The notes below the pieces were generated by a model. The model did not search any database. It saw only the letters and a program-made list of their open reading frames with translations, and was not told the origin of the DNA. Both the position numbers and the translations under genes were made by a program. A stretch of 38,470 bases of DNA from Acidimicrobiia bacterium (GTDB taxonomy: Bacteria; Actinomycetota; Acidimicrobiia; Spongiisociales; ZC4RG35). Below, one piece after another: positions 17,807-38,470 of this stretch. The first letter of the stretch is position 1; every line of letters begins with the position of its first letter. The stretch spans positions 1-38,470 of the forward strand of contig QIDW01000225.1 in NCBI GenBank assembly GCA_003230435.1, written 5' to 3'.

Positions 17807-17810
17807 TCGT

Positions 17811-17897
17811 GCCCGGGGTGGGTTTCGAACCCACACGAGCCGTGTTCGGCTCAAGGGGGTTTAAGCCCCTCGCGTCTACCGTTCCGCCACCCGGGCG
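17811..17897 (-). tRNA. tRNA-Leu (anticodon UAA), type II with a long variable arm; CCA is not encoded
   Basis: Folded by hand: acceptor GCCCGGG/CCCGGGC; anticodon stem AGGGG/CCCCT with loop CTTAAAC; variable arm GAGCCG-AACA-CGGCTC; T arm GTGGG-TTCGAAA-CCCAC; discriminator A. Confidence 0.9.
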
Positions 17898-27813: not shown

Positions 27814-29739
27814 CTATTCCTTCGCAGCCGTTCCAGGCATCATCTCAAAGAGAAGATCGAAGTCGATGAGTGCGCCGAAGAGGGCATGTAACCCGCTCGC
27901 GTCGCCATCGATGGACCCCTTCCCTGCCTCGATCAGTCCGTCGAACGTCGAGTTCCCCACGATCACGTCTTCGAAATCGGCGCGGTCGATAGCCACCGAG
28001 AACGTGGGGTCGGACGCGGCGAAGCCGACCTGAGTGGTCAGAGTGCCGTTGGAAAGCTCCAGGACAAGCTTCTCACCGGTGTCAGGATGTTCGACGTTTG
28101 CCACGAACTCGACATCGGAGACCTGTGAACTATCCAACCGAATCGCCAGATAATCGAAGAACATCTCGGTTGTGAGCGCGCTGAGAAGATCGGGACTCGA
28201 AGTCAATGGGGGTGTTCCCGCAGGGATCCCCGACCGCAACTCGAACGCGGCGCTGAGGAAACTATTCCTTACGCTTGGACTCTCCTGCTGATACCCGATC
28301 TGCTCGAAGATGTCGGCAAGGAGACCTTTAGCCTCGACGTTGTCGGGTTCGGCGTAGACGAGTTTGTTGACGATCTCCTGTGCCTCGCGATATCGGCCCT
28401 CGTCGTAAAGCTCTTTTCCTTTGGCCAGGATGGGTTCCGATCCGCCCATCATATCGACGTACAGAGGCGCCGATGCGTGCGGCGAGAGAGGTATCAGAGT
28501 CGTCGGGTTTCCATCCCAGTAGCCCAAATAACGGTTGATGACTGCCCGACTGTTGTGCTCGACGGATCCGTGGTAACTCCTTGCGATCCACTGTTTTCGC
28601 AGAGAGAGCGGTGGCTCGTAGACGTTGTGGATCTCATTGACGGTCACACCCTGATTGGCCAGGTGCAGCACACCGTTGTTGAGATGTGCGTAGGCATCTC
28701 GCTGACCTCGCAAGACCTCTTGAATCCGCTCATTTCCCCATCGCGGCCAATTGTGCGAAGCGAACATCACTTCTGCCTCCTGGCCGAAGAGATACAACGC
28801 CTCGCCGATCTTCTTCGACCACAGCAAAGCGTCCCGAATGAGGGCTCCTCGCAGCGTGTAGATGTTGTGAATCGTGGCGGTCACATTCTCGGCGGCCCAG
28901 AACGCCTTGAGGTCCGGGAAGTAGGTATTCATCTCTGCCGGGGCTTCGGTACCGGGCGTGCTGTGAAAGATCATGCGCACCCCGTCGATGACGTGTTCTT
29001 CGATTTCATCGGTGATGACCAGAGTCGGGGCGATGAGACTCATCACCCCGGCGGCCACACTCTTGCCGATGGCCTGGTCGACATGACCGTGGGAGTTGGC
29101 GGGAGTTAGAGCTCCGTATTGAAAGAAAGCACGGCGTCTCATCGCATTGCCGGCATACACAGCCTCAGCGACGGCATGTTCCATGAAACCCTCAGGAACG
29201 ATGATCGGGACCTTCCCCGAGCGAACGTCAGCATTGTCCACAACGCCGCGAACGCCACCAAAATGGTCGACGTGAGAGTGGGAGTGCACAACCGCGCTGA
29301 CGGGTCGTTCTCCTAACTGCTCATTGACGAAGGCCAGGGCGGCTCGGGCGGTCTCGACAGCCGTGGCAGTGTCGAAAATGATCCAACCGGTTTCACCTTG
29401 AATGAACGTCACATTGGAGAGGTCGAAGCCCCGCACCTGCCAGATCCCCGGCAACACCTCGTAGAGGCCGTAGCCCATGTTGAGCATTGCTTGACGCTGT
29501 AGAGAAGGGTGGATGCTGTCAAAGTCCTCGCCCTGCAAAAGGAAGTCGTACCGCCCCATATCCCAGGCGACGTTGCCGGCATCGGCCATGATCTGGGTGT
29601 AGTCGGGCGCAGCCACGAACCCACGACGATGCTCTTCAAAATCACGCTCATCATCGAAGGGCAAGGCCTCGCGCTGGTTGGCTTGGAACTCTTTAGTGAA
29701 TGACGACGGCTCTTTGCCGTCGGGGTGAAAATGGGACAC
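27814..29739 (-). CDS. Alkyl/aryl-sulfatase, metallo-beta-lactamase fold (SdsA1/YjcS type)
   Basis: 641-aa ORF with the HSHSHVDHFGG (HxHxDH) motif, followed by dimerisation and SCP2-like C-terminal regions, laid out as in type III sulfatases. Confidence 0.85.
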   Translation of the reverse strand: MSHFHPDGKEPSSFTKEFQANQREALPFDDERDFEEHRRGFVAAPDYTQIMADAGNVAWDMGRYDFLLQGEDFDSIHPSLQRQAMLNMGYGLYEVLPGIWQVRGFDLSNVTFIQGETGWIIFDTATAVETARAALAFVNEQLGERPVSAVVHSHSHVDHFGGVRGVVDNADVRSGKVPIIVPEGFMEHAVAEAVYAGNAMRRRAFFQYGALTPANSHGHVDQAIGKSVAAGVMSLIAPTLVITDEIEEHVIDGVRMIFHSTPGTEAPAEMNTYFPDLKAFWAAENVTATIHNIYTLRGALIRDALLWSKKIGEALYLFGQEAEVMFASHNWPRWGNERIQEVLRGQRDAYAHLNNGVLHLANQGVTVNEIHNVYEPPLSLRKQWIARSYHGSVEHNSRAVINRYLGYWDGNPTTLIPLSPHASAPLYVDMMGGSEPILAKGKELYDEGRYREAQEIVNKLVYAEPDNVEAKGLLADIFEQIGYQQESPSVRNSFLSAAFELRSGIPAGTPPLTSSPDLLSALTTEMFFDYLAIRLDSSQVSDVEFVANVEHPDTGEKLVLELSNGTLTTQVGFAASDPTFSVAIDRADFEDVIVGNSTFDGLIEAGKGSIDGDASGLHALFGALIDFDLLFEMMPGTAAKE

Positions 29740-36512: not shown

Positions 36513-37388
36513 TCACATTCCGGTGATGTTCCGGGGACTCATCCTGGGACCGAACTTTGGCTCATGACCCAGGTAGTGGAGCAGCCTGATCACACGACCC
36601 CGATTTGGCCGGAACGGCTCGAGTAGATCCAACATCTCCTTGTCCGTCCCTCTATCCCGACCCGTCAGATGGTGAACAACCATGTGCTTGAAATGGAAGT
36701 CACCCACGGCCACCTGATCGGGGTCGCCATGAGAAACCTCGAGTGTCTTGGCCACACTCCACTCCCCGACACCGTCGAAGGATCCAAGCAACCTGGCAGC
36801 CTCGGCCGGACCTACCCAGGCCAGAGCATCAATCTTCTCCCGGTTCGCCGCCAGCCGACGGAGGACATCAGCGCGGCGCTTCTCCAGATGTAGCTCGTGG
36901 AACACCCAGTAGGGAGCGTCGGCTATCCGCTCGTGGTCAGGAGGCAGCTCCAAGCTCTCATTGGGGCCGGGAGCCGGGTCAGAGAACGTCCGATACAACC
37001 CGCGCATCGCCGAAGCTGCCTCACTCCCGGTCACTTTTTGGCCGCAGACGGCAACAACTAGAGAATCAAGAACCAGATCGGTCCGGCCGAATCGCTCTCC
37101 GGGATGACGACGATGAAGCTCGGACACGATCGGGTCGTCCGTCTCGAACCCGGATGGGTCGTCATTGAGCCCCGAGACTGCACCGAGTCTGTCGAGCAAC
37201 CAAAGAGACCCTTCTCCCCACGCCTCCCCAATCACCTCCTCGCGTGTGCGGCGAATTCGCAGCGATCCAGGCCCCCGAGGTGTGCGGGCAGTCAGCCACC
37301 AACCGTCGTCGGCAAACCTCCCATGGAGGGGCTGCAGAGTTCGCCTCAGATCGAGGACACCCTCAATCGGGATCGACCTGGTCTCCAT
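36513..37388 (-). CDS. HhH-GPD base-excision DNA glycosylase (AlkA-like)
   Basis: ATG 37388 gives METRSIPIEG.... It has the VAVCGQKVTG helix, the HhH hairpin FDGVGEWSVAKTL and a downstream Asp (VAVGDFHF). Confidence 0.8.
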   Translation of the reverse strand: METRSIPIEGVLDLRRTLQPLHGRFADDGWWLTARTPRGPGSLRIRRTREEVIGEAWGEGSLWLLDRLGAVSGLNDDPSGFETDDPIVSELHRRHPGERFGRTDLVLDSLVVAVCGQKVTGSEAASAMRGLYRTFSDPAPGPNESLELPPDHERIADAPYWVFHELHLEKRRADVLRRLAANREKIDALAWVGPAEAARLLGSFDGVGEWSVAKTLEVSHGDPDQVAVGDFHFKHMVVHHLTGRDRGTDKEMLDLLEPFRPNRGRVIRLLHYLGHEPKFGPRMSPRNITGM

Positions 37389-37516
37389 CCTCCCATCCTT
37401 GTCGATACCGGCGGATTGCAACCCACCAAGAACTAAAACACGTACCTAATGCACCACGCGTCGCATGCGATCTTTTGTGCGAAGAGAAGGGCAACCAAGG
37501 GTCAAACCCGTCGTTA

Positions 37517-37804
37517 CTACCCCACCGCGCGGAGTTCGCCGTCGACGATCAACTCGTCAACTACTCCAACGACGACCGCTCGCACGGCACCCCAATCGAG
37601 ACCAAGAATCTGGCGGGCGGAAGTGCCCTCGTCCAAGATCAGCACTGTCTCGCCCACACCGGCATCGACCACATCGATGGCAATCGTGTAGCCGGATGGC
37701 TCCCCGGAGATGTCCTGAACGTCGCAGACCAGCAAACGATGGCCGTCGAGCACGGGGGCGTTGATCGTGGAGACAACCGTTCCGACTACTTTGCCGACCT
37801 TCAC
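37517..37804 (-). CDS. BMC vertex (pentamer) protein, EutN/CcmL family, paralogue 2
   Basis: 95 aa: MKVGKVVGTVVSTINAPVLDGHRLLVCDV...IAIDVVDAGVGETVLILDEGTSARQ...VVGVVDEL matches the EutN/CcmL pattern. It has a GTGA overlap with the upstream paralogue. Confidence 0.85.
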   Translation of the reverse strand: MKVGKVVGTVVSTINAPVLDGHRLLVCDVQDISGEPSGYTIAIDVVDAGVGETVLILDEGTSARQILGLDWGAVRAVVVGVVDELIVDGELRAVG

Positions 37805-38079
37805 GCGTTCGCTCCTAGGTGGACCTGATCGACGATCCCGACTATGGCGTGATCTACGGGCGCGAATCGCTCGGGAAGCGCCTCGGCGGCCTCCCTCGAG
37901 CTGACGAAGTAGACAAGCTCTCCCGGTCCGGCCATTTGAACCGCATCGGCGGCCACCACCGTGCTACCGGCCGGTTTTTGATGTTTGTCGAGAGGTTGGA
38001 TCACGAGAAAGCGGACACCCTCGAGGCCATCTGCCTTCTCCGTCGCAACAACACTTCCAAGGACGCGCGCCAACTGCAT
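37801..38079 (-). CDS. BMC vertex (pentamer) protein, EutN/CcmL family, paralogue 1
   Basis: 92 aa: MQLARVLGSVVATEKADGLEGVRFLVIQPLD...VAADAVQMAGPGELVYFVSSREAA...IVGIVDQV. Confidence 0.85.
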   Translation of the reverse strand: MQLARVLGSVVATEKADGLEGVRFLVIQPLDKHQKPAGSTVVAADAVQMAGPGELVYFVSSREAAEALPERFAPVDHAIVGIVDQVHLGANA

Positions 38080-38080
38080 G

Positions 38081-38470
38081 TCAGCTCTCGATTCGTTTCA
38101 AGAATCGAAGCTGGCTCCCCAGGTTCTCGATCATCTCTTGATGCAACTGGGCGATCACATCGGACCGAACCAATGTGCCATGAGGCTCGACACGACTCAC
38201 CGCTGCATCAACGGCGGCTGGAGAGCGTCCCGGAGAAGAAGACATACCCCTTGCCACCAATGCCGTCAGCCAGACGGACTGCCCCTAAGACAACCTGGGC
38301 TGCTTTGACCCCGGCGTCCGCACCGTCGATCACGGAGGCCACTGAGGACGTCTCGACGATCCCCAGGGCCTCTTCGCCGAACGTCGCATTCTTGGCGCCC
38401 CCAACAATCGCTGATGTCACATCCGGGTGTATGTCGGGGAGGAACACCGAGTCGGTGACGTTGTCCCCAC
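38081..38470 (-). pseudogene. BMC-domain shell protein. It is partial (runs off the window), probably tandem-domain, and carries one frameshift.
   Basis: EEALGIVETSSVASVIDGADAGVKAAQVVLGAVRLADGIGGKGYVFFSG is a canonical BMC (Pfam00936-like) core. After FFSG the expected continuation RSPAAVDAAVSRVEPHGTLVRSDVIAQLHQEMIENL...RIES-stop (38081-83) is in another frame, with the shift at about 38226-38231. The frame is open to nt 38470. The first visible residues, SVFLPDIHPDVTSAIVGG, look like the end of a preceding BMC domain. Confidence 0.8.

Follow-up and report, generated by a model that had tools for sequence, protein, structure and literature searches.

Three microcompartment shell genes at the end of an Acidimicrobiia sequence: the probable tail of an SPU-type operon, with SPU3 as the best-fitting subtype

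Introduction

When a stretch of DNA ends within a set of microcompartment shell genes, before any cargo gene has been reached, to what kind of microcompartment do those genes belong? The question is posed by 38,470 nucleotides of an Acidimicrobiia bacterium (the whole of this stretch is called the window below), at whose right-hand end three consecutive minus-strand genes encode components of a bacterial microcompartment (BMC) shell. An initial sequence-only reading took them for the end of a BMC operon whose cargo lies beyond the window. It also suggested that they might represent an uncharacterised multi-gene system, and considered the presence of two pentamer paralogues in one locus to be out of the ordinary.

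The comparisons described here lead to a less exotic answer. With a probability of about 0.88, they close a nine-gene sugar phosphate utilisation (SPU) microcompartment operon as its last three genes, and among the SPU subtypes SPU3 is the best fit. This is a known, catalogued kind of operon, and the locus is an ordinary SPU member rather than a new system. The SPU type was defined in 2014 (Axen 2014), and by 2021 over 280 loci from 26 phyla had been counted in it (Sutter et al. 2021, PMC8217296). All of its members carry a triplet of BMC-P genes, of which those called 'grey' and 'orange' are always adjacent (Sutter et al. 2021, PMC8217296). In all SPU RPIs the catalytic Cys is replaced by Asp, and DERA activity has been demonstrated for an SPU6 enzyme only (PMC11585597).

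The shell genes at the window end

The two genes that lie wholly inside the window, BMC-P2 and BMC-P3 (Table 1), each consist of a single EutN_CcmL domain (PF03319) of about 90-100 amino acids that is covered end to end. The Pfam match of P2 has an E value of 7.7e-26 and a score of 90.9 bits, extending over profile positions 1-83 of 83, and that of P3 has an E value of 1.1e-18 and a score of 68 bits over the whole domain, against a cut-off of 25 bits. Both proteins can be aligned over their full length with solved BMC pentamers, namely 5v74 BMC-P, 4i7a GrpN, 2hd3 EutN and 2qw7 CcmL. The best PDB match is 5v74, a BMC-P from Haliangium, for P2 (E 1.6e-12) and the CcmL structure 4jw0 for P3 (E 2.2e-12). 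The two share just 36% identity and are therefore distinct paralogues; from their homology, both would be expected to assemble as pentamers at the vertices of the shell. The genes are tightly packed, with the GTG start of P3 overlapping the TGA stop of P2 in the sequence GTGA (37801-37804) and the ATG of P2 lying one base past the stop of the preceding gene. On the coding strand no terminator was found 3' of the last BMC-P gene, and the gap that follows folds no better than shuffled sequences (z 0.39).

Table 1. Positions of the window features discussed in the text, with the two contigs that share the P2 protein
Feature	Position or length	Strand	Remarks
BMC-Ts, 3' part (about residues 68-196)	38081-38470	minus	PduT-like tandem BMC protein; runs off the window edge, frame broken
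BMC-Ts, frame A	38208-38470	minus	open at the window edge
BMC-Ts, frame B	38081-38215	minus	last 44 codons 38084-38215, stop 38081-38083
8-bp deletion junction	38219/38220	minus	AATGTGGA missing; from alignment with L001 and L002
BMC-P2	37801-38079	minus	92 aa; EutN/CcmL pentamer paralogue; second of the locus triplet
BMC-P3	37517-37804	minus	95 aa; EutN/CcmL pentamer paralogue; third of the triplet, last operon gene
AlkA-like gene	36513-37421, or 36513-37388 from ATG	minus	128 nt after the last BMC-P gene with the ATG start at 37388
L001	2805 nt		Logan assembly of SRR5560801
L002	719 nt		GCA_900175085.1

The third gene, BMC-Ts, is cut by the window edge. Its edge-open frame (38208-38468) matches the BMC domain PF00936 with an E value of 3.2e-10 (Pfam), and the end of another BMC domain comes before it. 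The intact gene on contig L001 encodes a protein of 196 amino acids, residues 4-183 of which align with residues 3-180 of PduT (3pac/3n79) at an E value of 2e-34. Two fused PF00936 domains are seen in that protein, whereas the window holds only the part from about residue 68 onward, with the second domain interrupted. The initial description of the three genes, as an edge-open tandem BMC-domain protein followed by two different EutN/CcmL pentamer paralogues joined by a GTGA overlap, was thus borne out. What it missed is that the window copy of BMC-Ts is broken, a point taken up below.

The first gene beyond the window edge

Two further public contigs, L001 and L002, code for exactly the same 92-residue P2 protein. 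L001, which we treat as coming from the same strain, shows no mismatch with the window over 2552 nt and a single gap of 8 bp; L002 is 96% identical to the window. L001 extends 60 nt beyond the start of the BMC-Ts gene, and its first 68 nt encode TRPRHFSRVRRISVVGALRIV followed by a stop codon (21 residues). The aldehyde dehydrogenase (AldDh) encoded on L003, a contig from a relative in which the whole operon is present, ends in exactly these residues, and there too its gene overlaps the BMC-Ts gene by 8 nt. In this strain, therefore, an AldDh gene is located just past position 38470. An exact 31-mer scan of metagenome contigs for one that would extend the locus further gave 0 matches. We infer that the remaining upstream genes of this genome are the same as in the relatives, whose shell protein is at most 89% identical.

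The operon in related genomes

On L003 the operon reads, in order, an RpiB-like gene (PF02502), a gene for the DeoC/DERA aldolase (PF01791), a CsoS1D_N+BMC gene (BMC-Tdp), BMC-H, EutN, AldDh (PF00171), a BMC-T gene of 196 codons for the protein, EutN and EutN, and the gene orders of L004 and L005 agree with this. In relatives of this kind the shell protein is 85-89% identical, with the complete locus seen on contigs whose BMC-T is 86% identical, and the L003 orthologues of P2 and P3 are 90% and 87% identical to the window proteins, respectively. A protein search with the 196-residue BMC-T found 3356 homologues; those with a named source among the 120 matches listed carry the label of Acidimicrobiia or Actinomycetota MAGs. 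The Actinomycetota-like character noted at the outset can accordingly be narrowed, by the labels of these related MAGs, to the class Acidimicrobiia.

A wider survey took one genome per GTDB species and yielded 80 loci, with few exceptions labelled Acidimicrobiia or Actinomycetota, against which the L003 proteins were run by tblastn. The colinear series RpiB-DeoC-Tdp-H-P1-AldDh-Ts was found in 60 of the 62 loci with at least 4.3 kb of upstream sequence, and both downstream BMC-P genes (P2 and P3) were present in 74 of 75 related loci. The third BMC-P gene of the relatives lies upstream of AldDh, and the members of the triplet have pairwise identities of 34-40%. Key positions of the enzymes are equally constant. 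The RpiB-like protein has Asp at the position of the catalytic Cys in every locus compared (60/60). The stretch 'GIMIDGAG' aligns to 'GIVICGTG' of 3ph3. DERA, which matches the PDB DERA 8qps at an E value of 1e-79, keeps its Schiff-base Lys (63/63); and AldDh keeps its catalytic Cys (77/77). The AldDh of L003 is closest to a BMC acylating AldDh, 5jfl (E 1e-129). DERA and the RpiB-like protein have conserved N-terminal extensions of about 52 and 39 residues relative to solved homologues, AldDh has one of about 20-55 residues with a conserved motif, and amphipathic-looking motifs occur in all three. No PTAC, alcohol dehydrogenase or PduS gene was found near the operon, and there was no PduS or PTAC Pfam match within 10 kb on L003-L005.

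Two further observations concern the relatives. A gene of 282 codons diverges from the RpiB-like first gene on L003 (4903-5751, minus strand) and recurs there in 51 of 62 related loci; its sole Pfam match is a weak, below-cut-off one to HTH_17 (E 6e-4), and it is a candidate regulator specific to the Acidimicrobiia SPU operon. Several GTDB representative contigs that carry the operon bear the titles Acidobacteria, Acidobacteriota or Boseongicola (L018, SMXW01000006.1; L008, CAXMMT010000050.1; L049, L069-L071 and L078). Their operons are of the Acidimicrobiia type; probably the bins were given wrong labels or the contigs were put in the wrong bins.

Assignment to the SPU type and to SPU3

The features that mark an SPU locus can be recognized in the relatives, partly in the window itself. 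The pfam01791 aldolase, the pfam02502 protein with Asp and the CoA-acylating AldDh (pfam00171) are all found in the relatives and all fall outside the window, while the adjacent BMC-P pair is inside it. Since SPU members carry such an adjacent pair, the two pentamer genes of the window are the expected pair, and the impression that two pentamer paralogues are unusual does not hold for SPU loci, in which the pair is standard. The proposal of a possibly uncharacterised system likewise finds no support, as both the cargo and the shell of the relatives are of the SPU type. The cargo does lie to the right of position 38470 as had been predicted, to judge from the AldDh C-terminus on L001 and from the DeoC, RpiB-like and AldDh genes of the relatives, and the window side is indeed the enzyme-free 3' end of the operon.

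Within the SPU type, the choice of SPU3 comes from setting the features seen here against the published description, rather than from the BMC Caller HMMs or the colour clades. The enzymes agree, being AldDh, pfam01791 and pfam02502 only, with no PTAC, AlcDh or PduS. The shell also agrees, with one BMC-H, a BMC-P triplet of which two are adjacent, one BMC-Tdp, and one BMC-Ts that has neither a PduS partner nor a pore cysteine. Both AldDh and DERA are extended at the N-terminus, as in SPU3, and Actinobacteria are among the phyla in which SPU3 has been recorded (PMC8217296, Supplementary Data 2). The relatives have RpiB and DERA as separate genes, which is the arrangement of most but not all SPU3 loci. 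There are also points of difference. The window holds only the last 2.6 genes, and its BMC-Ts is frameshifted, so that a normal shell may not be formed from this copy. In addition, the Tdp of the relatives matches the Pfam family CsoS1D_N, whereas the published supplement places the SPU3 BMC-Tdp in the CcmP-like clade and the main text lists SPU3 in both clades (PMC8217296). No Acidimicrobiia name turned up in the Sutter 2021 supplementary trees that were examined, and a literature search on BMCs in Acidimicrobiia returned nothing specific.

The other SPU subtypes considered fit less well: SPU2 with its extra BMC-P and pore Cys, SPU5 with pfam02502 missing, SPU6 as a Chloroflexi-only type with a C-terminal EP, and SPU7 with PTAC and PduS/T. 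SPU6 nevertheless resembles the present operon in having an N-extended DERA and an RpiB-like protein with Asp for the catalytic Cys, and the same chemistry has been proposed for it (PMC11585597). It differs in being confined to Chloroflexi, in an AldDh that has a C-terminal encapsulation peptide and belongs to another AldDh branch, and in having no BMC-Ts among its shell proteins (Supplementary Data 2, PMC8217296). The ACI type was dropped, as its name refers to Acidobacteria and it carries a class II aldolase (PMC8217296).

Among other microcompartments, the shell of Haliangium ochraceum (HO) also combines a BMC-P triplet with a BMC-Tdp; one of its BMC-P proteins is the best PDB match of P2, and its AldDh is related to the SPU AldDhs. 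The main HO loci differ in that they are myxobacterial and have neither DERA nor RpiB. PduT, the BMC-Ts of the propanediol microcompartment (3pac, 3n79), is like the BMC-Ts found here a tandem BMC-domain protein of about 190 amino acids; its pore Cys binds a 4Fe-4S cluster, however, whereas the relatives have His or Gln at that position and no PduS gene.

Alternative readings of the locus

An SPU3-like operon is not the only arrangement that could leave three shell genes at the end of the window. They might be of a different or uncharacterised BMC type, for example an RMM/aminoacetone locus or one with a novel actinobacterial cargo, and go with a cargo unlike that of the relatives. The window contains no cargo gene that would speak to this directly, and swapping of signature enzymes is known for BMC loci. 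The RMM1/AAUM aminoacetone type occurs in Actinobacteria and has BMC-Tdp. Against a cargo of another kind stand the AldDh C-terminus directly upstream in the same-strain contig, an operon that is invariant in 60 of the 62 related loci, and flanking synteny that agrees with L003, and we regard such a cargo as highly improbable. RMM itself could be rejected from its shell composition and from the DERA/RpiB/AldDh cargo of the relatives: it has one BMC-P, one BMC-H, two BMC-Tdp, no PduT-like BMC-Ts and an aminoacetone-pathway cargo, as opposed to two adjacent BMC-P genes and a PduT-like BMC-Ts in the window. The sequence-only reading had allowed that a well-known locus type would remove the novelty, and a well-known type is what emerged, SPU rather than the RMM/aminoacetone type that it named.

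The three genes could also form a satellite shell locus that stands apart from the cargo, instead of being the end of the main operon. Satellite loci with two BMC-P genes are indeed known in the HO and SPU7 types. The overlap of AldDh with the start of BMC-Ts in the same-strain contig, together with the contiguity of these genes with the cargo in all related loci, makes a separate locus scarcely credible here.

Flanking genes

Between position 38470 and about 26980, gene order in the window follows that of L003, except for one gene that is missing and one that is inserted; nucleotide identity over this colinear flank is about 81% across about 10 kb. The genes that follow the operon in both the window and its relatives are the AlkA-like gene, a BD-FAE hydrolase gene and a gene for a Glucosamine_iso family protein. 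The AlkA-like gene had been described as an HhH-GPD DNA glycosylase gene after a gap of 128 nt. The gap is correct if the gene begins at its ATG, but the HhH-GPD match is weak, at 20.3 bits below the cut-off of 26.2 bits, and the protein has weak similarity to the archaeal AlkA 2jhn (E 0.003). The gene lies within 2.5 kb downstream of the operon in 11 of 59 related loci and is a neighbour in the closest relatives only; with this distribution and a domain match under the Pfam cut-off, it was rejected as a member of the locus.

The interval between the last BMC-P gene and the AlkA-like gene is variable. On L003 (11152-11700), L004, L007, L008 and others it contains a Pyr_redox_2-like gene of 182 codons on the opposite strand, while the window (37389-37516) and L001 are without this gene and have the 128-nt gap only. 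Farther along, some 1.9 kb of the window have no counterpart on L003, which is otherwise colinear, and contain a gene for an alkyl sulfatase of 641 amino acids (27814-29739, minus strand) with metallo-beta-lactamase, Alkyl_sulf_dimr and Alkyl_sulf_C domains; its absence from L003 points to insertion or differential loss. A tRNA gene (17810-17896, minus strand) is the only Rfam match at the gathering threshold in the window. Searching the window by tblastn with all nine operon proteins turned up no further BMC genes, and the neighbours are housekeeping genes, including those for Mfd, peptidyl-tRNA hydrolase, ribosomal protein L25 and an FGGY kinase.

The interrupted BMC-Ts gene

The 8 bp that the window lacks, AATGTGGA, are retained in both L001 and L002. 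Their absence shifts the frame of BMC-Ts within the second BMC domain and brings in a premature stop codon (38210-38208), and the deleted codons fall in a conserved stretch that includes the residues V150 and A153, invariant in 16 homologues. Some 250 nt separate the junction from the window end. The deletion is due either to an error in the assembly or to variation between strains.

If it is real, the operon might be decaying in this strain, with the SPU locus partly inactivated, either leaving a shell without BMC-Ts or marking an organelle that is being lost. The loss of conserved residues and the resulting premature stop would fit such a decay, and the intact gene in two further assemblies, which come from this population or one close to it, argues that the state seen in the window is the derived one. 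No second lesion accompanies it, however: P2 and P3 are intact, and L001 matches the window at every other position of the 2552-nt overlap. Throughout the class the operon is otherwise strictly conserved, and if the nearby end of the window is also the end of the contig, it is a place where assembly errors are common. On balance we consider decay of the operon a serious contender but a doubtful one.

A second feature of BMC-Ts is found in the intact homologues. The pore position (residue 39; nucleotides 175-177 of L001), which aligns with Cys38 of PduT, is His in 76 of 80 loci, Gln in 4 and Cys in none. A His instead of a Cys at this position is consistent with the lack of a PduS partner. One may speculate that the three His residues around the axis of the trimer could form a metal site. 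It is unlikely, though worth stating, that two things hold together: that the deletion is genuine in the population, so that some cells are without a functional BMC-Ts, and that the near-invariant pore His forms a site for metal binding or gating that differs from the iron-sulfur site of PduT.

A model for the working of the SPU operon

How the nine proteins might work together can be outlined from the published SPU model, on which both the substrate and the encapsulation proposed here are based. [quoted passage not shown] The encapsulated AldDh would then convert the toxic and volatile acetaldehyde into acetyl-CoA. The enzymes may be brought into the compartment by their N-terminal helices.

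The products would leave through pores in the shell. Because no PTAC is encoded, the gated pore of BMC-Tdp becomes a candidate exit for acetyl-CoA. P2 and P3, the adjacent pair of the triplet, may cap the shell vertices or serve a second role. BMC-Ts would be a facet trimer with His at the pore position, in place of the cysteine that holds the 4Fe-4S cluster in PduT.

Conclusions

For the genome at hand the outcome matters little beyond correct annotation: the three genes should be labelled as the BMC-Ts/BMC-P/BMC-P tail of an SPU-type (deoxyribose-phosphate) metabolosome operon, and the frameshift in BMC-Ts should be flagged. If the deletion proves genuine, it would provide a natural test of whether the BMC-Ts facet protein is dispensable, and if the pore His is a metal or gating site, the Acidimicrobiia operon would be a functional variant of SPU3. 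The nine-gene operon is strikingly invariant over dozens of Acidimicrobiia species, which fits the idea that these widespread bacteria live in part by scavenging the deoxyribose of DNA debris and would make a cultured Acidimicrobiia species a reasonable host in which to test the SPU3 model.
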